This document shows, one piece after another, positions 12,312 to 44,390 of a DNA stretch of 64,000 nucleotides. The translations under genes were made by a program, and so were the position numbers. The notes beneath the pieces were generated by a model. It saw only the letters and a program-made list of their open reading frames with translations. It searched no databases and was not told where the DNA came from. Position 1 is the stretch's first letter, and the number at the start of each line of letters is the position of its first letter. The stretch is from Minisyncoccia bacterium (GTDB lineage Bacteria > Patescibacteriota > Minisyncoccia > 2-02-FULL-40-12 > IGHO2-01-FULL-4-A), in contig JBEKBN010000006.1 in NCBI GenBank assembly GCA_050015375.1, forward strand, positions 454-64,453. The letters run 5' to 3'.

Positions 12312-12875
12312 ATGTCTTGGCAAATCTGTAAGCCGAATTCTGTTCCCCCACTTTTTGAGTTGCCCCAAAAGTGGGGGAGGCGATCATTTATCTGGTCCCT
12401 CGGTTACCCTCGGGATCTAGCGTCTCTTCCCCCACTTTTTAAGTTGCCCTAAAAGTGGGGGACACGGACTTGCACCGGGCAGGGTTTAGCGCGCATCCAT
12501 GTCGCCATGGAGCGGTCCCGTTCGGGGCCTTTTCACCCGTGATCCGCTTGCGCGGACTCGGAATAGTTTCTGTGCCACTTTCCCTGAATTTTGATAAATA
12601 ACTTTTGTCTTAAGAACAAAAACTATCCATCTTATATTCGGTGGCCATTAGCCACTGCCCTGCTTACGCAATCACCAACTGCTAATCTCTAATCTCAAAT
12701 AAAACCATTGGCGATCTTAGTTAACAATTAATGATTGCGTAAGCGGTGTTCGGACTTTCCTCCCTAAAACATTTTGCTTTCGCAAAATGTTCGGGCGATC
12801 AATTCGCAAAGCGAATTGATTTAGCCCCAAATCCAATAAGAATTCGTAGAGTAATCACCCGATTTACCAGGACTT
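12312..12875 (-). ncRNA. rnpB: RNase P RNA (bacterial type A-like) with an extended helix and twin hairpin insertions
   Basis: Reverse complement carries GGGAGGAAAGUCCGAAC (P4 5'), CAGGGCAG, AGUGGCACAGAAAC, CGCGCAAGCGGAUCACGGGUGAAAAGG, CUAAACCCUGCCCGGUGCAAG and ACAGAAUUCGGCUUACAG (J/P4 3'). These align with E. coli M1 RNA. The 5' and 3' ends are approximate. Confidence 0.8.
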
Positions 12876-33666: not shown

Positions 33667-34536
33667 ATGAAAATAATTTTCAGGATTCTTTATTATTTGT
33701 TTTTCACGGCGGTTATTGTCGTTGTTTTGGCGTTGCTGGTGTCATTATTTCCGATTTTCGGGGGATTGAAGTTTTTCATTGTTCGATCGGGCTCGATGGC
33801 ACCGGCGATCAAAACCGGAAGCGTAGTGATGGTCAAACCCGAAGCCGATTACAAAATCGGGGATATAATATCGTTCAGTTTGGATGAAAAAAATGAAATA
33901 CCCACGACTCACCGCATCAAGGAAATAAAAATCAAAAACGGAATTCAGAAATTTATCACTCAAGGCGACGCCAACAACGCGCCGGACATGGTTGAAATTG
34001 AAAAAGAAAATATTATCGGCAAAGTGATTCTGACCGTTCCTTTAGCCGGATATTTGGTTGCAGTCGCTCAAAAACCGAGCGGTTATCTGGCGCTGATATT
34101 GATTCCGGCGTTCGTGATAATCGGCGACGAAATCTCGAAGATCATCAGGGAAACGAGAAAAAAACGTCAAGAGAAAAGCCAATCAAGCAACAAATCAATC
34201 CCATTCTATATTTTTTGTTTGGGTCTGGGACTTGCCGAGCTTTTACTCCCATCAATTCGCGCAAATTCGTTTTTCACGGCGACTGAAACCGGTGGGTTGA
34301 TGATAGTTGCCGGTTCGTGGTCACACGCCAAGACATCGGGCATCGCTATCGTGGCTCAAGAACCGACTTCTGATTCCGAGATTGACGTTCAAATCGCGAG
34401 TGGCGCTTCGGGAATCGAGTCAAATAAGGATGAACTAGCCCCAGAGCCGGCGGCGCCTCCGGCGCCGCCGGCCCCCGAAATCCCGCCGGCCGAAACCACC
34501 GTGGCGAGTCCTTCCGCCGAAATCATTCATGATTAA
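33667..34536 (+). CDS. sipW: signal peptidase I, SipW/archaeal type (S26B), with a Pro/Ala-rich C-terminal extension
   Basis: FIVRSGSMAPAIKTGSVVMV (SGSMxP), catalytic His in PTTHRI, and a second TM. The C-terminus is PEPAAPPAPPAPEIPPAE. Confidence 0.8.
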   Translation: MKIIFRILYYLFFTAVIVVVLALLVSLFPIFGGLKFFIVRSGSMAPAIKTGSVVMVKPEADYKIGDIISFSLDEKNEIPTTHRIKEIKIKNGIQKFITQGDANNAPDMVEIEKENIIGKVILTVPLAGYLVAVAQKPSGYLALILIPAFVIIGDEISKIIRETRKKRQEKSQSSNKSIPFYIFCLGLGLAELLLPSIRANSFFTATETGGLMIVAGSWSHAKTSGIAIVAQEPTSDSEIDVQIASGASGIESNKDELAPEPAAPPAPPAPEIPPAETTVASPSAEIIHD

Positions 34537-35410
34537 AACAAAAGTAAAACCAATTTTGACGGCAATTATTCTGTTTTTCGTTTTTTCGACCATTTTTTTG
34601 TCCGTCGTCAGTGTTCAAGCCGCCGATTTTCAGGTTACCTTCCAAAATCATCCGCTTTTCAAAAACGCCAATTTCATTCCCGGCGATTCGATCACTCGTT
34701 GGATCAAGGTCGTCAACAACAGCGGCCAAAATCAAACCGTCTTGATAAAAAGCGACAATGCCAGCGACCCCAATCACATGGACGGCGCAATGAATCTGAC
34801 CATCAAACAAGGGACCGCCACGCTTTATCAGAATTCTTTCGCTGATTTTTTGAGCGGGGACTTGATCGCTCTTTCTGAACTTGATAGCGGAAAAAGCGCT
34901 CAATATAATCTGACGGTTACATTCGATTTGTCCGCTGATGATCTTTATCAAAACAAGACGCTTGGTTTTAATATTCTTGTCGGTTTTGAACCGACCGGCT
35001 ACGAACAAAGCGATACCGGCACAACTTTTCTAACTGACAATCCCGATAATAAAGTCGAGGTTGTAACAATGACGCCGACGCCTTCGATAATTTCGTCGTC
35101 GCCGACGCCGACTCCGTCGGCGTCGGCGACCCCATCTCCCCGGCTAAAACCCAGCGTGAGTCCAATTTTACTTCGATCATCGCCAGCGCCCGTAATCGTT
35201 CACAATATTTCTTCCGCTACCACGTTATCCGCCAATTCACTTGCAACCCCGAACCTCCCGCCGTCTCTGACGACCGCCAATCCCGTCCGCCAACCCCAAC
35301 TCGCCCTCATTCTCGGCGTTTCCCCGACCCGCTGGCTGATCTATATTTTCATTTCCCTATTTGTCGGTATCGTTTCTTATGTAATTTCAAAAAAGTGGTT
35401 TAAAAATTAA
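34529..35410 (+). CDS. secreted surface protein with a Pro/Thr/Ser linker and a C-terminal TM anchor
   Basis: Signal peptide, a beta-rich domain, a PTPS-rich linker and the C-terminal anchor IYIFISLFVGIVSYVISKKWFKN. The anchor-coding segment is duplicated at 36193-36262. Confidence 0.5.
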   Translation: MIKTKVKPILTAIILFFVFSTIFLSVVSVQAADFQVTFQNHPLFKNANFIPGDSITRWIKVVNNSGQNQTVLIKSDNASDPNHMDGAMNLTIKQGTATLYQNSFADFLSGDLIALSELDSGKSAQYNLTVTFDLSADDLYQNKTLGFNILVGFEPTGYEQSDTGTTFLTDNPDNKVEVVTMTPTPSIISSSPTPTPSASATPSPRLKPSVSPILLRSSPAPVIVHNISSATTLSANSLATPNLPPSLTTANPVRQPQLALILGVSPTRWLIYIFISLFVGIVSYVISKKWFKN

Positions 35411-35411
35411 A
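35343..35411 (+). repeat. direct repeat copy 1 (about 70 bp, C-terminal anchor-coding segment)
   Basis: About 92% identical to 36193-36262. Together they bracket the PEP-CTERM gene cassette. Confidence 0.7.
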
Positions 35412-35517: not shown

Positions 35518-36135
35518 ATGAAAAGAATGACCGTTTTGGGTTTGTTTCTGGTGGTTTTCCTGACCGTGTTTGCCGTATCGGTGAACGCCGAGACATTGGC
35601 ATTTAACGGCTATCCGTGGGGACTGAACGACGGTTCCTTCTATGTTGGAGACGCCGCCGGCACGCTGGGGACGAATAATATTGTAATGTGGTGCGTGGAT
35701 CCACTTCACGAAATCACGTTGAGTCCCTGGGATGTTACTGTCGTGTCTCTGGCAAATCCAATCGGACTAAACGGATTGCCCTTGACTGTGGCCGACTACG
35801 AGGCAATGTTTCTCCTCGGTCAGCAGTTCACGAATACAAACCAAACGATAGATGTGGCGCTACAGCACGAGATCTGGTCGTTCGCTAACCCGTCGGCATA
35901 TCCTCTTACGGTAGCCGAGCAAGGGCAGAAAAACGACGCCATAGCAGCGATCGGCGGTTATAACTTTTTGGGCGCTGACGTTCTTGTTCCCCAGGGAGAT
36001 CCTAGCGGGTGGACAGGGCAGGTTTTCGAGACCGGCACCGCGACTATGGTCCCTGAGCCCGCGTTCATCTTACTGTTAGGCCTGGGCCTAATGGGTGTCG
36101 TTCTGGCGGCCGGAGGAAGAAAACAGAAAAACTAA
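35518..36135 (+). CDS. secreted protein with a C-terminal PEP-CTERM sorting signal
   Basis: SD GAGGAGAGGAG. Signal peptide. The C-terminus VPEPAFILLLGLGLMGVVLAAGGRKQKN is a canonical PEP motif plus TM plus basic tail. No exosortase gene is in the window. Confidence 0.65.
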   Translation: MKRMTVLGLFLVVFLTVFAVSVNAETLAFNGYPWGLNDGSFYVGDAAGTLGTNNIVMWCVDPLHEITLSPWDVTVVSLANPIGLNGLPLTVADYEAMFLLGQQFTNTNQTIDVALQHEIWSFANPSAYPLTVAEQGQKNDAIAAIGGYNFLGADVLVPQGDPSGWTGQVFETGTATMVPEPAFILLLGLGLMGVVLAAGGRKQKN

Positions 36136-36192: not shown

Positions 36193-36262
36193 TATATTTT
36201 TAATTTCCCTGTTTGTCGGTATCGTTTCTTATATAATTTCAAAAAAGTGGTTTAAGGATTAA
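36193..36262 (+). repeat. direct repeat copy 2 (orphan anchor-coding remnant, LFLISLFVGIVSYIISKKWFKD*)
   Basis: Noncoding copy of the 35343-35411 segment that still reads as an in-frame anchor peptide. Confidence 0.7.
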
Positions 36263-36412
36263 ATTGTCAGCAGTGGATAACCTATTGCATTGTTTCGGTA
36301 TCTGATATATAAGGTAGATAGTCACGTTTTTTTCAACTTTCTTAAATCGTCTCACCGGATGGCGCCGACTCCGAACTCTTGTTAGCCGCCAGCACTGCCC
36401 GATGGACCTGTT

Positions 36413-39400
36413 TTGTTTATGAAAATAAACAAACTTGGGGGGGGGCTTAAGTGGTCGATTTTCGCAACTCTTTTAGCAACCGCTCTAGTAGGCGGATTTT
36501 TTGTACACAATGCCAAGGCGACTGTTAGCACCTGTTCTGATATCACCCTTGGTGTGACTCAAATCACTGCTATCCAAACCTATGCCACCGCTGACAATAC
36601 TTTTGCCGACGGCTGGAAATGGGTTTTCAATGTTACCGTTCCGACTTGCCAAACACTTCTTCAAATGAGATTCGGTGACTGGGTTGGAACCGCTGGCACC
36701 ATTCCAGCCGCGACAAATATTCAATTTTATTCTAATCAATCTACAAATGCAGCCGATGAGGCGCACGCAATAATTATCAGTGCCGCTAATACATATAGTG
36801 GTTTGATGATCCTTTCTGGTGCTGATCTTGATGGGTCAACACCCGGCACCCAGATCCAAATAACAGTTGAAGCGAGAGTTCCAATTGATTCAGCTGGTGG
36901 TTCTTACTCGACAAGTTATGGCATACAATCGAATCCTGCACCGACCGTTCTATTCGTTCTCCCTATCGGTAACATCAATGTTGCTAATGGCACCGCTCTT
37001 GATGCTGTAGGTTTGCCGGCTAATGCTACCGTAGGTTTGAGCAACGGAAACACTCAATTAATGGCAGTCGTTTGGGATGGTGGTACGCCAACTTATGACG
37101 GCACAACAGCTGGCACCTATGCTTTTACAGGTGCATTGACTTTACCTGCTGGTGTTACTAATCCGGACGGCAAAACAGCCAACGTAAACGTAATTGTGGA
37201 ACCAATACCTACCCACACCATTACCTCCTCTGTTGTAGGCGCATCTGTCTTTGGTCCGAAACACGGCACGATTTCTCCTCTCGGTGCAACGACCGTGAAT
37301 GATGGCGACAGCCAGACCTACACGATTACGCCCGATACCGGCTACCAGATTCTTGAGCTTAAAGTGGACGGTGTTTCCACAACGCCGGCCGACAGTTATA
37401 CTTTCACCAATGTCACAACTGACCATACCATTGCCGTGAGCTTTGCCCCGATTACTTATACCTTAACCTATTCCGCCGGAGCCCATGGTTCCATTGTTGG
37501 AACTTCGCCCCAGGCAGTAAATTACGGCGCTGATGGAACAGCCGTGACTGCGACGCCAGCCGAGGGTTATCATTTCGTAGGTTGGAGCGATCAGTCAACA
37601 ACTAATCCGAGAACCGACAACGATGTAACCGGCAATATTGATGTCACTGCCAGTTTTGCAGTTAACCAATATACAATTACTTTTGGTTCAAATGGTGGCT
37701 CAGCCGTAGCTTCCATAACTCAGGATTATGGCTCACCGGTTACTCCACCAGACGATCCAACTCGAGCAGGTTATACCTTCGCCGGTTGGGTTCCAACAGT
37801 TCCGGCAACGATGCCATTAGGCGGAGCGAGTTTAGTTGCCCAGTGGACTGCTGTTGTTGCACCAATCACCCACACTCAAAAGGATCTGACGACTTGGGTT
37901 CCGATTCAGGGTGGAATAACTGCCGATGTAACAATTTCAACAGTAAATAATAAATTCCACGCAGACGGAGTTCCAACTGGATATACTTTGGTGTATTACC
38001 CTAATGTTGGAACTTATGATACCTACACTGGAGAAGTTTATCCTGTAGAGGGCACTAATATGGATCTTCCAATGTCAGATGATTTGAATCGCGGTAAAGA
38101 AGATTACTGCAATAATGGATTTAATCCACACGCAATTCACTGTGATGGCGCTAAGTTGTGGCTTGTTCCAACCGAAGACATATCAACAACAATTAATTCT
38201 GATGGAAGCCAGACATTGGTTGGAGATTGGAATACGATCGCTCCGAATATTTTGTTCGAGACAAATCTGATAACTTATCAAGCAACTCCGATCACTCACA
38301 CCCAAAAGGATCTGAACACCTGGGCTCCACTTCCAAATGGAATAACTGCCGATGTTACATATGACCTGACCGGAGATACTTTCCAAGCGACCGGAGTTCC
38401 ACCTGGATATACTTTGGTGTATTATCCTAAACCCGCAACTTGGACCGGATTGGTCTATTCCGTCATTGGTAATAGCATGACCCTTCCAATGCCAGGTGAT
38501 TTGAATGGTAGTCCATCATCAGATTACTGTACCGTTAGAAATAGTGAGGGGAATTTGGAAAATCCGCATGAAATAATTTGCCAAGGAGCCGCGTTGTGGC
38601 TTGTTCCAACGGGTGAATTAACAGATAACCACGATGGGACTTATACAATTAATTGGGGCACTGCTTCTGATATTTTGTTCGAGACAGACCTGATAAATTA
38701 CACAGCTCCGACTTCTACCCCAAGCGCTAATCTTATTCTCACCGCTCCAGATGCCACAACTATTAATCAATCTGCTTTAGTTCCTGAAACGAGCAACGGA
38801 ATACCCACTGGCGGAAACTCAACAGTTGATACTGCCATCAATGGCCTTAGCCCGATTGCGGTGAGGTTGCAGAATACCGGCGATGCCGCTTCTGCTAATG
38901 TTCGCATCAGCCCGATTGGCGACGCTTCTGGGCACATTCAGTTATGGGCAAAAGATACTTTAGGTAATTGGTATGACATCAATGTTACTGGCTGGGGGCC
39001 AGCCGAAGGTTTTCCAGTGCCAGCCCCATACGATGCCACTACTAATGTCTATGCGATTTCCGACGAAGTAGGATCTTATGACATGATAGCTAATTTGATT
39101 TTGGTAAGTAATTCATCACTCGTTGCGCACACAAAGGGAATAATTACCGTTGCCCCTGCCCCGACCCTTTTGTTTGATACCGGCATCACTGATGGTTCCA
39201 CTATCTTACCGGGTACACTTGCAACTCAGTTCACGATTACAACTACGGGTGTCCCGGGTACGATGCACACGCTTGGGTTAACGGGCACCACAGCAACTCC
39301 AGCTCTTGCAGATGGCAATTATGACTTTAAGCTTGTGGCAACCTCAGACGTGCAAGCCGCTTTGACTTCTTATTTTGGAGCTAAGGCAGGATGGACTTCG

Positions 39401-40051
39401 GATATGCAAATGCAAACTCAAATCAATTCTGAAATTGCTGGCAGCTCGCCATTCTTCAAACTAAACGCTGCCAGCGGCGCCTATTCCTTAGTGGATAATT
39501 TCAAACAAACACTTGGCTTGCCAGATACATCCCTGACTATTGATGATGATTATCCAACCGGCACATACGTCTATACCGGCACACTTACTGGAACAAACAG
39601 CGCGACCCTGCCGGTTACTGTAACATTGGTAGTTGAAGGACCAACTCCGCCACCAACTCCTTCTGTAACACAATTGAAAATTATTACTAATCCGCAAACT
39701 ATTCTGGTAGATACCGCTTCAGGTGTGATTAGAGTGGAATCAGAGGACGCGTTAGGGAATCCATTAAAAGTTTCAGTTGCGACAGAAGTAGATTTCACCT
39801 CCAGTCCTGGAACAGGTTTGTTTTCTTCGGCAAATTATGAAAGTAAAACGTGTAATGACGATTGGTTAAGCACGCAAAGTTTAACCATAGAGAAAGGAAC
39901 TGCACATATAAGTTTCTGTTACAAAGACAACGTGGCGGGAACGCCGACACTAACAGCTTCTTCTGATGACTTGACTCCTGGTACTCAAGTAATTACAATA
40001 ACCTCAACTGATACCAGCTCAACTGACACTAGCGACACCACGCAACAATAA
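36413..40051 (+). CDS. giant repeat-rich cell-surface protein (Listeria-Bacteroides/flg_new-type repeats, Ig-like domains)
   Basis: 1212 aa with a signal peptide, repeated modules (ITHTQKDL...GVPTGYTLVYYP twice) and GYTFAGW-type repeats. A G9 tract sits in the signal-peptide coding region. Confidence 0.75.
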   Translation: MFMKINKLGGGLKWSIFATLLATALVGGFFVHNAKATVSTCSDITLGVTQITAIQTYATADNTFADGWKWVFNVTVPTCQTLLQMRFGDWVGTAGTIPAATNIQFYSNQSTNAADEAHAIIISAANTYSGLMILSGADLDGSTPGTQIQITVEARVPIDSAGGSYSTSYGIQSNPAPTVLFVLPIGNINVANGTALDAVGLPANATVGLSNGNTQLMAVVWDGGTPTYDGTTAGTYAFTGALTLPAGVTNPDGKTANVNVIVEPIPTHTITSSVVGASVFGPKHGTISPLGATTVNDGDSQTYTITPDTGYQILELKVDGVSTTPADSYTFTNVTTDHTIAVSFAPITYTLTYSAGAHGSIVGTSPQAVNYGADGTAVTATPAEGYHFVGWSDQSTTNPRTDNDVTGNIDVTASFAVNQYTITFGSNGGSAVASITQDYGSPVTPPDDPTRAGYTFAGWVPTVPATMPLGGASLVAQWTAVVAPITHTQKDLTTWVPIQGGITADVTISTVNNKFHADGVPTGYTLVYYPNVGTYDTYTGEVYPVEGTNMDLPMSDDLNRGKEDYCNNGFNPHAIHCDGAKLWLVPTEDISTTINSDGSQTLVGDWNTIAPNILFETNLITYQATPITHTQKDLNTWAPLPNGITADVTYDLTGDTFQATGVPPGYTLVYYPKPATWTGLVYSVIGNSMTLPMPGDLNGSPSSDYCTVRNSEGNLENPHEIICQGAALWLVPTGELTDNHDGTYTINWGTASDILFETDLINYTAPTSTPSANLILTAPDATTINQSALVPETSNGIPTGGNSTVDTAINGLSPIAVRLQNTGDAASANVRISPIGDASGHIQLWAKDTLGNWYDINVTGWGPAEGFPVPAPYDATTNVYAISDEVGSYDMIANLILVSNSSLVAHTKGIITVAPAPTLLFDTGITDGSTILPGTLATQFTITTTGVPGTMHTLGLTGTTATPALADGNYDFKLVATSDVQAALTSYFGAKAGWTSDMQMQTQINSEIAGSSPFFKLNAASGAYSLVDNFKQTLGLPDTSLTIDDDYPTGTYVYTGTLTGTNSATLPVTVTLVVEGPTPPPTPSVTQLKIITNPQTILVDTASGVIRVESEDALGNPLKVSVATEVDFTSSPGTGLFSSANYESKTCNDDWLSTQSLTIEKGTAHISFCYKDNVAGTPTLTASSDDLTPGTQVITITSTDTSSTDTSDTTQQ
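36437..36445 (+). repeat. homopolymeric G9 tract within codons 9-11 of the giant surface protein gene
   Basis: AAACTTGGGGGGGGGCTTAAG. The only G/C homopolymer of 8 nt or more that I found in the window. Confidence 0.8.
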
Positions 40052-40065
40052 ACAACTAAAACCCT

Positions 40066-40749
40066 ATGAAAAAAAATATATTGATAATTTTAGTGTATGG
40101 ATTGCTGGCGGTGTCGCTGTTTGTGTTTGGTAATCGGGTGTTTGCGGACCAAGTCACCGGAACTCTGACAACAGGAATTAGCGGCAATAACGGCCAAACA
40201 ATGAATGGCGTGGTCATTGCTCCGCCGATACCTAGCCCATTGCCCGGAACCTATCCCTTAACACAGGATAACGTGGCCCTAAAAGTTGGTTTGTCTTCCG
40301 CCGGTTCGATGAGTATTCGCTATGCTACAGATGGGTCTGTACTGACATGCGCTAACGGGAATCTATACAATGCTAATGCTCTGATTCCGGTGAGTGTCAC
40401 AACGACAATTGAGGCAATCTCGTGTTATCCAAATGGAATTTCATCTGCGGTCGCTGGTTTCACTTATACAATTAATCCGGCGACTCCGACTCCAACGCCT
40501 ACCACATCTACTGGTGGCGGCGGGGGAGGCGGGGGCTCATATTATTCCTTTACCCCGACCCCAACTCCGAGTCCAGGTGTGGCCATAGTGGGCGATATAA
40601 ACGGTAATGGTAAGGTGGATATTAGTGACTTCGATATGTTGATGAACAATTGGGGGAAAACCGGAACTGGAATCCAAGGCGATTTGGACCACAACGGCGT
40701 TGTTGATATATTGGATTTTAATTTATTGATGGCTAACTGGAGTAAATAA
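40066..40749 (+). CDS. dockerin-domain secreted protein
   Basis: C-terminus GDINGNGKVDISDFDMLMNNWGK...GDLDHNGVVDILDFNLLMANWSK is two canonical dockerin type I Ca-binding repeats. Also carries a signal peptide and a Gly8 linker. Confidence 0.7.
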   Translation: MKKNILIILVYGLLAVSLFVFGNRVFADQVTGTLTTGISGNNGQTMNGVVIAPPIPSPLPGTYPLTQDNVALKVGLSSAGSMSIRYATDGSVLTCANGNLYNANALIPVSVTTTIEAISCYPNGISSAVAGFTYTINPATPTPTPTTSTGGGGGGGGSYYSFTPTPTPSPGVAIVGDINGNGKVDISDFDMLMNNWGKTGTGIQGDLDHNGVVDILDFNLLMANWSK

Positions 40750-40768
40750 TTACGACAAAATCACAAAC

Positions 40769-41518
40769 ATGAAAAAAATATTGTTCAGTTCAATACTGGT
40801 CACTGGATTCGCGGTTTTTTTTGTCGGAAATGCTCTGGCCGATTCATCAATATCGTTGTCGCCGGTTAGTATTTCTCCGAAAGCGGGAAGCACGGTCAAT
40901 GTTACCGTGACGGTCAATCCAAATAGCGTCAGTAATTCAACCGTAAAGCTTGTACTTAATTATCCCGCCGATCTTCTGCAAGCAACAGGATTCACTTTTG
41001 CCGGTAACTGGATGCCGTTGACTCAAACCGGTTACGATTCCATCGATAACACAGGAGGTACCCTGATTAAAACTGGCGGTTATCCGGGCGGATTCTCGAC
41101 AACCACGACCCTTGGCACGGTAACATTCAAAGCGAAGAGAACCGGCACCGGCGCAATCAGTATCGGAAGCGGTTCAATGGTTCTGGATTTAAGCAGTAAA
41201 AATGTTTTGACCGATATTTCTTCAACTGTGACAATTTCAATTCCGACTTTAACAGCGCCGACTCCGAAACCGTCAACAATTGTAGGCAATATTCCGGCAG
41301 TTTCGCCGGTAACTGGCGTCACTGAATCGGCGACGCCGAGCCCCATTGTCGCCGCCAATGCATTGCCAGCCAATGGCCAGCAATACGGCACTATCGCCAC
41401 GGCCCTCGGAATTCATAACGGCACGTGGTGGATTTGGCTAGTAGTTCTCTTGGTCATCATCTATCTCATCTATCGGATATTCAGGAAAAGATCCGGCCCG
41501 AGCCAGCCGACTCAATAA
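40769..41518 (+). CDS. cohesin-like domain protein with a C-terminal TM anchor
   Basis: Signal peptide and a beta-sandwich region (VKLVLNYPADLLQATGFTFAGNW...GTVTFKAKRTGTGAISIG) resembling cohesin. C-terminal anchor WWIWLVVLLVIIYLIYRIFRKR. Confidence 0.5.
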   Translation: MKKILFSSILVTGFAVFFVGNALADSSISLSPVSISPKAGSTVNVTVTVNPNSVSNSTVKLVLNYPADLLQATGFTFAGNWMPLTQTGYDSIDNTGGTLIKTGGYPGGFSTTTTLGTVTFKAKRTGTGAISIGSGSMVLDLSSKNVLTDISSTVTISIPTLTAPTPKPSTIVGNIPAVSPVTGVTESATPSPIVAANALPANGQQYGTIATALGIHNGTWWIWLVVLLVIIYLIYRIFRKRSGPSQPTQ

Positions 41519-41569: not shown

Positions 41570-41597
41570 TTGACAACAAAAACCAGCTTGATATAAT
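41570..41597 (+). promoter_or_regulatory. strong sigma-70 promoter (TTGACA-16 nt-TGaTATAAT) upstream of the panA-like gene
   Basis: Consensus -35 and an extended -10, about 110 nt upstream of 41707. Confidence 0.6.
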
Positions 41598-41706
41598 GGA
41601 GGTACTAAACGTGAAAAGCATCCTAGATGGGTGCTTTTCGGTCTATGGTGCATAACTTCATAGAGTTTGCCTGTTAAAACTGTCATAATTAATATAAAAA
41701 GAACTT

Positions 41707-42243
41707 ATGAAAATACCGCTACCAAAACTCAAGGCGATTATTAGGTATTTTGGTACCCATACTGATCCCAAATTTCTCGGCAAGGTTAAATTAATGAAAC
41801 TTTTCTACTTTCTTGATTTCATGCATGTCAAAAAATTTGGTGCACCCATAACATATGACTGTTATATCAACTTAGAACATGGTCCAATACCGTCAGCTAT
41901 TAAAAATCTAGTTGACTCGGCCGCAGATGATATTGATAATTCCGTCCTCGCTGACGCAATCAGGATTGAAAGACCGCAAAGTACCGATATGTACAGAGTG
42001 GTGCCTCTTAGGGAATTCAATAAAGCTGATGAAAATTATTTCTCTGAAACCGAGCTCGAAACATTAAAAAAAGTATGCGCAAGGTTTAGCGACAAAAATA
42101 CGAAATTCATTGAAGATGAATCTCACAAAGAAGCTCCGTGGAAAGAAACCAAGTTTTTGGATGTAATACCCTACGAACTCGCCACTAAGGACAAAGATTG
42201 TTTAATATCCGAAGAAGAAATAAAACTACTTCTTTCTATCTGA
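41707..42243 (+). CDS. Panacea-domain (DUF4065, SocA/PanA-like) antitoxin
   Basis: KVKLMKLFYFLDFMHVKKFGAPITYDCYINLEHGPIPS and ESHKEAPWKETKFLDVIPYELA match the DUF4065/Panacea consensus (KLQKLLYF..., SHxExPW). Confidence 0.75.
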   Translation: MKIPLPKLKAIIRYFGTHTDPKFLGKVKLMKLFYFLDFMHVKKFGAPITYDCYINLEHGPIPSAIKNLVDSAADDIDNSVLADAIRIERPQSTDMYRVVPLREFNKADENYFSETELETLKKVCARFSDKNTKFIEDESHKEAPWKETKFLDVIPYELATKDKDCLISEEEIKLLLSI

Positions 42244-42244
42244 A

Positions 42245-42655
42245 GTGCTTAACCTAATAAAATTTGGGGATGTTTTTGTTTATAAAGGTACTGAATGGGT
42301 TTTCTTGGCAAAAACCGAAGAACTCCTTTTCGCAGCCCAAATACTGGATAAAGAGCAAACGGCTCAAATAGATTTATTATTTAATAAGCTAGCCTCAAAG
42401 GGCAGCAAGATTGCCGACCAGATAAAAGATAAACCTCTTTATTGTTATGTTGTCCTCGAGACAGAAAAATTTAAAAGAAGAGCAGCTCATTTCAAAACAG
42501 CCATCAGCGGCAAAAGCGCAAATGATAATGAGCCTTTTTTTGATAAAATACTGGATCCTTTGATAAAAAGCGATTTGGTTAATATTAAAAAACAAATTAT
42601 AAATGGTCCGTTTAGCAAATTACTTAAGGATATAGTAAGGGATATTGATATTTAA
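42245..42655 (+). CDS. candidate PanT-type toxin of unknown family (136 aa), translationally coupled to panA
   Basis: GTG start 1 nt after the panA stop. No recognisable domain. Classified by its position in a two-gene module. Confidence 0.4.
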   Translation: MLNLIKFGDVFVYKGTEWVFLAKTEELLFAAQILDKEQTAQIDLLFNKLASKGSKIADQIKDKPLYCYVVLETEKFKRRAAHFKTAISGKSANDNEPFFDKILDPLIKSDLVNIKKQIINGPFSKLLKDIVRDIDI

Positions 42656-43265: not shown

Positions 43266-44390
43266 ATGAAGTATAGAAATCATGAAACTGAAGTTGTTTT
43301 GTTTTTCGCCGTTTTTTTGATGGGAATTTTGGTTTTTGCGGTCGGGGCGGAAAATGCCAGGGCGAGCTATCACTTTGCCAATTATCGGGGACAACCGCCG
43401 ATCCATATTTACGGCGGGACGAGTAAAACACCCAAAGGCATGACACCGGCACAAATCAAAAAAATCTACAATTTGCCGGCAAGCGGGGGCTCGGGCACGA
43501 TCGCTATTGTCGGCGCGTACGATGACGCGACGATCGAGGCCGATCTGGCTGGTTTCGATAAACAATTCAATCTCGTGTCTTGCACGACTAAAAACGGCTG
43601 TTTTGAAAAACATAAAATGAGCTCGGCAATTTCGGCCAACAGCGGCTGGGCGTTGGAGACGACGCTTGACGTGGAATGGTCGCATGCCATTGCGCCGAAC
43701 GCCAAAATACTTCTCGTCGAAGCGACGACGCCAAGTGGAGCCAATCTTCTGAAGGCCATTGATTACGCAACGGGCCGAGCCGACGCAGTGGCAATTTCAA
43801 TGAGTTGGGGCGGAGCTGAATTTCCGGAAGAAACCACATTAGATAGTCATTTCGTCAGCAAATCAGGCGCCGTCTTTTTTGCATCCTCGGGCGATAACGG
43901 CTGGGGCGCGTCTTGGCCGGCATCGAGTCCGAATGTCATCGGCGTCGGCGGGACGACCGTTGTCATGAGCTCGAACGGAACTTTTCAAAAAGAAACTGCC
44001 TGGAGCGGCAGTGGCGGCGGTGTCAGCAAATACGAAAAACAACCCGGCTTTCAGGCGGATTATTCAATAACCAAAAGCAACGGCATGCGGGCGATCCCTG
44101 ATGTCGCTTATGATGCCGATCCGGCTTCGGGTTTCCCGATCTATCGTCTTGGCATTTGGCGAACGGTTGGGGGAACTTCCGCCGGCGCGCCTCAATGGGC
44201 AGGTATCGCCGCTTTGAACCACTCGGTTTCAAACAGCAAGATTTATCAGGACAAAGCGGCCGACAATTTCGCATCATATTTTCGCGACATCGTCAGCGGC
44301 GCGAACGGCGATTGTAAATATTATTGTCAAGCCCGAAAACATTACGACTACATCACCGGCCTGGGCAGTCCTCAGACATCATCATTCTGA
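43266..44390 (+). CDS. secreted subtilase/sedolisin-like serine peptidase (S8/S53 clan)
   Basis: Signal/TM region, then SSGDNGW and GGTSAGAPQWAGIAAL (catalytic Ser motif). The subfamily is not resolved. Confidence 0.65.
   Translation: MKYRNHETEVVLFFAVFLMGILVFAVGAENARASYHFANYRGQPPIHIYGGTSKTPKGMTPAQIKKIYNLPASGGSGTIAIVGAYDDATIEADLAGFDKQFNLVSCTTKNGCFEKHKMSSAISANSGWALETTLDVEWSHAIAPNAKILLVEATTPSGANLLKAIDYATGRADAVAISMSWGGAEFPEETTLDSHFVSKSGAVFFASSGDNGWGASWPASSPNVIGVGGTTVVMSSNGTFQKETAWSGSGGGVSKYEKQPGFQADYSITKSNGMRAIPDVAYDADPASGFPIYRLGIWRTVGGTSAGAPQWAGIAALNHSVSNSKIYQDKAADNFASYFRDIVSGANGDCKYYCQARKHYDYITGLGSPQTSSF

Follow-up and report, generated by a model that had tools for sequence, protein, structure and literature searches.

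Cell-surface anchors of the OlpA/OlpC/ScaE type use SLH domains or sortase. In these cellulosome anchors, which include OlpA and OlpC of Clostridium thermocellum with type I dockerins (3ul4 and 4dh2) and ScaE of Ruminococcus flavefaciens, one surface cohesin captures a C-terminal, two-repeat calcium-binding dockerin. Cohesins and dockerins are also used outside cellulose degradation in the glycoside-hydrolase toxin complexes of Clostridium perfringens (dockerin 2jnk/2ozn; cohesins 2jh2, 2vo8, and 2w1n), where secreted enzymes are linked to each other. In Bacillus subtilis, aa 44-57 of TapA, which are exposed by signal-peptide cleavage, are sufficient for function and complement the Ig-like fold of the partner protein (PMC10151520, PMC9674648).

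The locus described here was found in a 64-kb stretch of DNA from an ultra-small bacterium of the Patescibacteria (Minisyncoccia), the whole of which is referred to as the window. It consists of three closely spaced ORFs, all on the + strand, as are all the features given below. The first (36413..40051) codes for a giant secreted surface protein of 1212 aa, as judged from the ORF, Pfam, and internal repeats, and it ends 14 nt 5' of the second (40066..40749), which codes for a dockerin-bearing secreted protein of 227 aa that has 46 full-length homologues and is the proposed adaptor. The third ORF (40769..41518) follows after 19 nt and codes for a cohesin anchor protein of 249 aa that belongs to a family of ~250-aa proteins. 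The layout is operon-like, and the next transcription unit starts with a perfect sigma-70 promoter at 41570. All three ORFs are present as the original prediction had described them, including the position of the dockerin and cohesin genes immediately 3' of the gene for the 1212-aa protein. In the NCBI annotation the 40066-40749 product is named 'dockerin type I domain-containing protein' and the 40769-41518 product is a 'hypothetical protein'. The upstream genes for a SipW-type peptidase, a TasA-like protein, and a PEP-CTERM protein were considered as parts of the system and rejected; no homologues of them were found within ~9 kb of the cassette in the other 74 loci and, since they are not conserved with the cassette, they are taken to be local neighbours.

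The 227-aa protein begins with a signal peptide (aa 1-27; 40066..40146), assigned from its sequence and its aligned position in the family, with predicted cleavage after VFA. At the N-terminus of the mature protein the family alignment reveals a conserved motif, DQVTGTLTTGISG (40147..40185; family consensus SEVTGTLxTGIS), which is a candidate beta-strand for engaging A4, a domain of the giant protein discussed below. It is followed by a small beta-sandwich of the CHB_HEX_C_1 / Fn3_assoc type (aa 60-129; 40243..40452; Pfam 25.1 bits against a cut-off of 22) that has two invariant cysteines, C95 and C120, in the family alignment, and then by a flexible Pro/Thr and poly-Gly linker (aa 140-175; 40483..40590) evident from the sequence and the family alignment. 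The poly-Gly stretch lies ahead of the dockerin in nearly all loci. In the dockerin module (40591..40746), 6 aa link repeat 1, GDINGNGKVDISDFDMLMNNWGK (aa 176-198), to repeat 2, GDLDHNGVVDILDFNLLMANWSK (aa 205-227). Each repeat of ~22 residues has a calcium loop and then a helix, namely, DINGNGKVDISD (nt 40594) followed by FDMLMNNWGK and DLDHNGVVDILD (nt 40681) followed by FNLLMANWSK, which is the arrangement of a two-repeat dockerin, and D or N occupies positions 1, 3, 5, 9, and 12 in both loops. The pattern D.[DN].[DN]G..D..D has just these two matches in all six frames of the window and none in 200 shuffles. Among relatives the motif DF..LM.NW is near-invariant. The module matches Pfam Dockerin_1 (PF00404, type I-like) over aa 176-222 with 25.9 bits, above the gathering cut-off of 22.9, relatives pass as well, and sequence searches of the PDB with it matched the dockerins 2jnk (9.6e-4, the best match) and 9gvb_B (2.3e-3). 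The two canonical calcium-binding repeats that had been predicted at the end of this protein are both intact, and the module that they form is significant in Pfam.

The cohesin protein has a signal peptide (aa 1-24, ...GNALA|DSS; 40769..40840), assigned from sequence and alignment, and a cohesin beta-sandwich (aa 26-158; 40844..41242) that is modelled by AF2 with pLDDT >90. The best-conserved stretch of this domain is GYDSIDNTGGTLIKTGGYPGG (aa 88-108), and the motif GYD.IDN...KT.GYPGG is near-invariant in the family. Searching Pfam for both modules had been suggested in the original prediction. While Dockerin_1 scored above its threshold, the window protein matched Pfam Cohesin (PF00963) over profile positions 7-138 of 139 with 21.1 bits, which is below the cut-off of 24.1. 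Among its family, 28 of 52 members match this model (E<=0.01, best 6.2e-11). Sequence searches of the PDB with the cohesin protein and with the family profile matched just a TM helix and an Ig-like tail protein and found no cohesin, and because of this the fold is taken from structure prediction. When the AF2 model was compared with the PDB using Foldseek, the top 47 matches were all cohesins, with E from 2.8e-9 to ~5e-5, probability 1.00, and target-normalised TM of 0.5-0.78, in agreement with the nine-stranded beta-sandwich of cohesins. A sub-threshold cohesin score together with an unrelated Ig-like fold had been named as what would speak against the original prediction; the low score was indeed obtained, but the matching relatives and the 47 cohesin structures do not fit an unrelated Ig-like fold.

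When species-representative genomes were scanned with 14 cohesin family sequences, 68 loci were obtained, nearly all of them titled Patescibacteria or CPR lineages; one complete genome, CP179889.1, has two of the cassettes. There were 67 non-duplicate cohesin genes with upstream DNA, and in 60 of these loci an ORF ending in poly-Gly and a dockerin lies directly 5' of the cohesin gene. The gap between the two genes is -38 to +45 nt in 59 of the 60, and in the remaining one, L074, there is an overlap of 100 nt between the ORFs as called mechanically. With L068, in which a 1933-aa protein has the C-terminal dockerin, and L063, in which the dockerin protein is fused in frame with the cohesin, the pairing holds for 62 of the 67 loci; in the other five no dockerin gene was found 5' of the cohesin gene. 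The genes flanking the cassette are otherwise unrelated between loci. The dockerin-tagged partners vary in size and kind, from peptides of 110 aa up to 1,900-aa proteases, lectins, and Ig-repeat proteins, and their cargo domains include subtilase, beta-helix, polysaccharide deacetylase, Laminin_G_3, and LTD. From these comparisons of sequence, the dockerin/cohesin pair is a conserved and widespread cassette of the Patescibacteria. Since the cohesin/TM gene is constant and its dockerin-tagged partner can be exchanged, the cassette seems to be a general and so far undescribed route by which these bacteria fix proteins to their surface. That the two genes form a surface-attachment pair, as was originally proposed, is supported most strongly by the 62 paired loci. 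The accompanying argument that such modules are rare outside cellulolytic Firmicutes was partly right, but within this lineage the cohesin family alone comprises at least 614 clusters at 50% identity (E<=1e-30). A search of the literature on cohesins or dockerins in Patescibacteria, CPR, Parcubacteria, or DPANN turned up no account of the cassette; related papers use the terms cohesin and dockerin in the context of cellulosomes or of Omnitrophota.

The 1212-aa protein has a cleavable N-terminal signal peptide (...HNAKA|TV), Big_4 and Listeria-Bacteroides (Flg_new) repeats in Pfam, and an internal duplication of 426 nt; neither a dockerin nor a C-terminal anchor was found in it by sequence and Pfam. 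Near its N-terminus is A4, a conserved and unannotated beta-sandwich of ~150 aa (aa 30-179; 36500..36949; AF2 pLDDT 82.4) for which Pfam and PDB sequence searches gave nothing significant. Its fold matches, obtained with a model from a 9-sequence alignment, are weak and mostly to chaperone-usher pilins (best E 1e-3, TM 0.35-0.45). Two other identities for A4 were rejected, namely, that it is a second cohesin (hhalign probability 0.4%) and that it is related to the TasA-like 293-aa protein of the window (hhalign probability 0.2%). In 15 loci, copies of A4 that are 41-54% identical are present at the N- or C-terminus of the protein encoded just 5' of a small dockerin protein of 115-233 aa, and A4 is limited to this position; in the loci compared it was never found in a large protein that has its own dockerin. 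The adaptors that follow an A4-bearing protein have the N-terminal motif described above. This includes the adaptor of L028, which at 115 aa consists of only a signal peptide, SEVTGTLSTEVKGTVNIPT, poly-Gly, and the dockerin. The pattern is repeated in a second adaptor class (PGIPHQFYG...), whose giant proteins have another conserved module, of ~290 aa. Based on these co-occurrences, we propose that A4 is the docking site for the N-terminal segment of the adaptor, bearing in mind that the co-occurrence may come partly from the common ancestry of orthologous loci. In the subclass to which the window belongs, the probable role of the small dockerin protein is that of an adaptor for the 1212-aa protein and not of the sole cargo. 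The 1212-aa protein is a probable indirect cargo.

The alternative that survives best is that the system is strictly of two components, in which the cargo on display is the small CHB_HEX_C_1-dockerin protein itself, for instance as a glycan-binding module, and the 1212-aa protein is just co-transcribed and is retained or released independently. The adaptor does have a folded domain of its own with its two invariant cysteines, at many loci the dockerin protein has some other folded domain and is not next to an A4-bearing protein, and the giant protein is linked to the adaptor through co-occurrence. However, the minimal proteins of L028 and L045 (131 aa) lack any folded domain that could be displayed as cargo, yet both have kept the N-terminal motif and both follow an A4-bearing protein. 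The mutual exclusion of A4 and a covalent dockerin in the large proteins also argues against this alternative, as does the giant protein having no anchor of its own. On balance we regard a strictly two-component system as rather unlikely for this locus, and it is more probable that the pair holds secreted proteins on the cell surface with the small dockerin protein tethering the 1212-aa protein through A4.

Downstream of the cohesin domain is a low-confidence linker rich in Pro, Thr, and Ala (aa 162-218; 41252..41422; pLDDT 43-58) that is variable in the alignment and is presumably a wall-spanning stalk. Next comes a hydrophobic helix, TWWIWLVVLLVIIYLIY (aa 219-235; AF2 helix 220-241), after which the tail, RIFRKRSGPSQPTQ, is basic (RIFRKRSG); helix and tail together take up 41423..41515. 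The cohesin-like protein had been predicted to have a signal peptide, a beta-sandwich, and a C-terminal TM anchor, and all three were located. A hydrophobic helix with a basic tail is present in most of the scorable family members, and it would serve as a membrane anchor or possibly as a sorting signal. If it is a tripartite sorting signal like LPXTG or PEP-CTERM, the C-terminus would be cleaved by an enzyme and the cohesin would end up covalently on the wall or on a lipid, with its function in display unchanged. We give this alternative a small place because (S/T)(L/F)GTG(N/S) immediately precedes the hydrophobic helix, which is then followed by an R/K cluster, in many relatives. Nevertheless, it is unlikely, as the window protein has a degenerate form of the motif (ALGIHNGT) and many members lack it, no ORF with a sortase-like TLxTC was found in the window, and no processing enzyme is conserved beside the cassette.

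With the helix as a membrane anchor, the cassette would work as follows. The cohesin protein would be exported and its signal peptide removed, after which the C-terminal helix would keep it in the cytoplasmic membrane with the basic tail inside the cell and the single cohesin domain outside on a Pro/Thr stalk of ~55 residues. The product of the upstream gene would also be exported, and its C-terminal calcium-binding dockerin, on the poly-Gly tether, would plug into the cohesin. That the two modules bind each other is what we infer from their folds and from the pairing of their genes. The opposite case, in which the dockerin-like module is a generic EF-hand calcium-binding stabiliser, the cohesin-like one an unrelated Ig-like surface protein, and their adjacency a matter of shared envelope-gene regulation, is very improbable, for although the window protein is under the Pfam cohesin cut-off, EF-hand models match the dockerin weakly, and co-regulation could conserve adjacency with no direct contact, the dockerin is at the extreme C-terminus of the protein before the cohesin gene in 62 of 67 loci while the rest of that protein is fully turned over, the fold matches are specifically to cohesins and not to generic Ig domains, and both partners have near-invariant motifs. 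In the subclass of the window, the mature N-terminal segment of the adaptor (DQVTGTLTTGIS...) would bind the pilin-like A4 of the co-transcribed 1212-aa protein and, since that protein is without its own anchor, the adaptor would serve as its membrane tether, a step that we draw from co-occurrence. It can be speculated, with considerable doubt, that this amounts to a three-part tether composed of an adhesin-like, fast-evolving giant with a pilin-like domain, an adaptor whose mature N-terminus donates a beta-strand to that domain in the manner of TapA or of chaperone-usher systems, and a membrane-anchored cohesin that receives the adaptor's dockerin, possibly for attachment to a host. If so, each adaptor class would have its own kind of partner domain, and surface proteins could be swapped while the anchor stays unchanged.

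The CPR/Patescibacteria account for a large part of bacterial diversity, and a life attached to host cells is presumed for most of them. A conserved and modular cohesin-dockerin anchor would be a concrete and testable mechanism for holding their large surface proteins on the envelope. Both domains can be expressed and their binding assayed in vitro without cultivating the organism. It would widen cohesin-dockerin biology to a membrane-anchored, one-to-one, and non-cellulolytic setting, and hundreds of 'hypothetical proteins', including the cohesin protein of the window, become annotatable through the cohesin family.

Among the known systems, chaperone-usher pilins such as FimG, FimA, PapH, and SafA, in which a donated N-terminal strand completes the fold, are the commonest, though weak, fold matches of A4. 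We do not claim membership for it, since TM is only 0.35-0.45 and E is >= 1e-3, and neither an usher, a chaperone, nor other Gram-negative machinery is present. The minimal adaptors, with a signal peptide, a segment of ~19 aa, poly-Gly, and a dockerin, are similar in design to TapA in the TapA-TasA system; unlike there, strand donation is hypothetical here, and the two have no sequence relationship. The likeness to the C. perfringens toxin complexes is that cohesin and dockerin would operate outside cellulose degradation, and in addition to 2jnk being the best PDB sequence match of the window dockerin, the best fold matches of the cohesin model include C. perfringens cohesins (TMt up to 0.78). 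In contrast to the secreted enzymes of those complexes, the cohesin here would be membrane-anchored and is encoded beside its partner. A cellulosome has a multi-cohesin scaffoldin and dockerin-bearing carbohydrate-active enzymes, whereas here there is a single cohesin, the one dockerin in the window is on a non-enzymatic 227-aa protein, and no glycoside hydrolase was found in the cassette. The parallel with the surface anchors of cellulosomes is that one surface cohesin would capture a C-terminal two-repeat dockerin, and cohesins of the OlpA/OlpC/ScaE type are indeed among the Foldseek matches of the cohesin model (ranks 15-18 and 37). Unlike those anchors, the cohesin protein described here would be held by a C-terminal hydrophobic helix with a basic tail, its partner in the window is not a carbohydrate-active enzyme, one dockerin gene lies directly beside one cohesin gene in place of many dockerins per genome, and the host is a member of the Patescibacteria and not a cellulolytic Firmicute.

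Two repeats, GDINGNGKVDISDFDMLMNNWGK (aa 176-198) and GDLDHNGVVDILDFNLLMANWSK (aa 205-227), form the C-terminus of the 227-aa protein encoded on the + strand at 40066-40749, which NCBI labels 'dockerin type I domain-containing protein'. These are the only matches to the Ca-loop pattern D.[DN].[DN]G..D..D in the six frames of the 64-kb window and none was found in 200 shuffles. Pfam Dockerin_1 matched the protein at 25.9 bits (cut-off 22.9), and its top PDB sequence matches are dockerins, namely, 2jnk (9.6e-4) and 9gvb_B (2.3e-3). Thus, the two dockerin Ca-binding repeats that the original prediction had placed at the end of this protein are confirmed. CHB_HEX_C_1 was also matched, at aa 60-129 (25.1 bits; cut-off 22).

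ORF calling places this gene in a three-gene block on the + strand, 14 nt behind the ORF of the 1212-aa giant protein (36413-40051), so the large surface protein said to lie directly upstream is indeed there, and 19 nt ahead of the ORF of a 249-aa protein (40769-41518). The next unit begins at a perfect sigma-70-type promoter, TTGACA-16-TATAAT with the TG of an extended -10 (41570-41597), which is followed by a leader of ~110 nt with a hairpin inside it (about 41613-41640) and then by a SocA/Panacea-domain antitoxin-like gene (41707-42243; 69 bits). A 136-aa gene without a family abuts the latter (region 41570-42655), and the two may be a toxin-antitoxin pair.

The 249-aa protein is a 'hypothetical protein' to NCBI, and no cohesin was matched in PDB sequence searches. 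The Pfam Cohesin match covers profile positions 7-138 of 139 at 21.1 bits, under the 24.1 cut-off. A database search gave 51 homologues of ~250 aa, all with a signal peptide, a ~135-aa domain, a Pro/Thr linker, a hydrophobic helix, and a basic tail, and Pfam Cohesin is matched at E<=0.01 by 28 members of this 52-protein family (best 6.2e-11). The AlphaFold2 model built on the homologue alignment has a mean pLDDT of 82.5, exceeding 90 in the domain at aa 26-158. When this model was compared with the PDB by Foldseek the top 47 matches were all cohesin modules, among them Clostridium acetobutylicum CohA2 (6kgd_A; E 2.8e-9, TMt 0.71), C. perfringens 2jh2 (TMt 0.77-0.78), the C. thermocellum OlpA/OlpC cohesins, and Ruminococcus flavefaciens ScaE. 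Because of these matches the modelled domain is assigned a cohesin fold and not that of a generic Ig domain. The original prediction, which proposed a cohesin-like beta-sandwich next to the dockerin gene, was to fall if the cohesin score was below threshold and the fold was an unrelated Ig-like one; the score is below threshold but the fold is that of cohesins, and the beta-sandwich stands. The C-terminal helix appears to be an anchor or possibly a sorting signal. In many relatives (P0003-P0040; L009, L024, L025, L044, and other loci) a (S/T)(L/F)GTG(N/S) motif, degenerate in the window protein, directly precedes the hydrophobic helix and basic tail, and such C-termini resemble a tripartite C-terminal sorting signal.

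In five distant homologues the order large surface protein, dockerin protein, cohesin/TM protein is kept while the other genes around are unrelated. In a scan that took a single genome from each species, 68 loci were found, with titles nearly all of Patescibacteria or CPR lineages (Paceibacterota, Jorgensen-, Wolfe-, Nealson-, Taylor-, Azam-, Nomura-, Doudna-, and Berkelbacteria are included). Proteins identical to those of the window stand in NCBI under a 'Minisyncoccia bacterium' MAG, whose phylum, Minisyncoccota, is another name for Patescibacteria/CPR. The RNase P class A RNA and the tRNAs mark the window as bacterial; the former (12313-12810, - strand) must contain sizeable insertions, because the match is 498 nt long against a 367-position model. 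Pairing was counted with ORF calls and purpose-built profile HMMs on the 67 cohesin genes that had upstream DNA and were not duplicates. Immediately 5' of 60 of them is an ORF ending in poly-Gly and a dockerin, at a gap of -38 to +45 nt in 59 loci; in the remaining one, L074, mechanical ORF calling gave a 100-nt overlap instead. At L068 a protein of 1933 aa carries the dockerin at its C-terminus, in L063 dockerin and cohesin are fused in frame, and neither an upstream dockerin ORF nor a fusion was found in five (L030, L062, L065, L072, and L073). The position of the dockerin, at the very C-terminus, never changes, while nothing else in the protein is kept between loci; the cargo, of 110 to 1933 aa, includes a fervidolysin-like subtilase (L013), beta-helix/NosD (L043), a polysaccharide deacetylase with Ig repeats (L068), Laminin_G_3 (L040), LTD (L017), and FG-GAP (L061). 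An exhaustive profile search for the cohesin family, counted in clusters of 50% identity, gave 614 at E<=1e-30 and 1292 at E<=1e-10, the best matches being nearly all ~225-290 aa. The dockerin has a near-invariant motif, DF..LM.NW, and so does the cohesin, GYD.IDN..G.LIKT.GYPGG, and we infer from this pattern a conserved interface. We consider it probable that the cohesin-dockerin pair anchors proteins at the surface.

Some relatives carry both modules in one polypeptide: the 712-aa protein of L063 (7570-9708) places the dockerin (aa 398-444) before the cohesin, and P0120 and P0134 run from cohesin through a PT linker to dockerin. These could self-associate, polymerise, or be frameshift artefacts. 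The complete 647-kb Candidatus Nealsonbacteria genome (CP179889.1) has two cassettes ~35 kb apart (L024, 378525-397280; L025, 413147-431620) with near-identical dockerin proteins of 232 and 235 aa.

The giant protein starts with a cleavable signal peptide, and Pfam identifies Big_4 and Flg_new repeats in it; neither a dockerin nor a C-terminal anchor was found by sequence or Pfam. Within its gene (37862-38700) is a ~426-nt tandem duplication, with segments 80-84% identical, that encodes two ~142-aa modules (PITHTQKDL.TW.P...GITADVT...LWLVPT...ILFET.LI.Y) without family assignment. By BLAST and HMM comparison the large upstream proteins share one ~150-aa domain, A4 (aa 30-179 in the giant protein of the window; 41-54% identity), N-terminal in some loci and C-terminal in others. 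In all 15 loci that have A4, it is in the ORF just 5' of a small dockerin protein (115-233 aa), and among the loci compared it is never in a large protein with its own dockerin. Nearly all small dockerin proteins after A4 ORFs have a SEVTGTLSTG-like motif right behind the signal peptide (DQVTGTLTTG in the window; none clearly seen in that of L021), and the smallest have essentially nothing beyond motif, poly-Gly, and dockerin, that of L028 being a signal peptide, SEVTGTLSTEVKGTVNIPT, poly-Gly, and dockerin. The giant proteins that precede a second class of dockerin proteins (PGIPHQFYG...) share a different conserved ~290-aa module, which appears to be another class-specific partner domain like A4. 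It lies at aa ~1842-2134 of the 2137-aa protein of L001, occurs also in L008, L011, L012, L015, L016, L032, L034, and L051, and varies in position among the loci (C-terminal, internal, or N-terminal). Based on the co-occurrence of A4 with small dockerin proteins, the shared N-terminal motif, and the same logic in the second class, we tentatively propose, at slightly under even chances, an adaptor role for the small dockerin proteins, which would couple the dockerin-less giant proteins to the cohesin anchor.

Neither Pfam nor PDB sequence searches matched A4, and it was ruled out as a cohesin and as a relative of the TasA-like protein of the window. Its AF2 model (pLDDT 82.4, from an alignment of only 9 sequences) gave weak fold matches (best E 1e-3, TM 0.35-0.45), mostly to donor-strand-complemented pilins (FimG, FimA, PapH, and SafA) and Pyrodictium cannulae. 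Strand donation has a Gram-positive precedent in TapA/TasA (PMC10151520, PMC9674648). The pilin-like matches would fit strand donation between adaptor and A4, which we regard as rather unlikely.

The upstream genes for a SipW-type signal peptidase (33667-34536; TIGR02228, 110 bits), the 293-aa TasA-like protein, and a PEP-CTERM protein (35518-36135) were rejected as parts of the cassette, since no homologue of them was found near the cassette in other loci. The SipW/archaeal-type signal peptidase I (region 33667-35410) has a ~110-aa Pro/Ala-rich C-terminal extension, and its gene overlaps the start of that for the TasA-like protein, which is secreted, has a C-terminal TM helix, and has no Pfam or NCBIfam match. 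A PEP-CTERM protein is unexpected in a Patescibacteria genome. Its gene is bracketed by a 66-nt direct repeat, 92% identical (35346-35411 and 36198-36263), in the second copy of which the TM helix and tail that end the TasA-like protein are encoded again (...FISLFVGIVSY.ISKKWFK.). This suggests that the PEP-CTERM gene arrived here through insertion or duplication. Elsewhere in the window, a 374-aa secreted protein (43266-44390) without a Pfam match at E<0.1 has subtilase/sedolisin-like motifs (SGDNG..., VGGTSAGAPQWAG).

No description of the cassette was found in the literature on cohesin/dockerin in Patescibacteria, CPR, Parcubacteria, or DPANN. Functionally, the closest systems are the single-cohesin anchoring proteins of cellulosomes and the non-cellulosomal cohesin-dockerin pairs. 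The Patescibacteria cassette differs from these in its C-terminal helix anchor, or possibly sorting signal, in the one-to-one pairing of adjacent genes, in its non-cellulolytic and very diverse cargo, in its CPR host, and in its probable adaptor layer.
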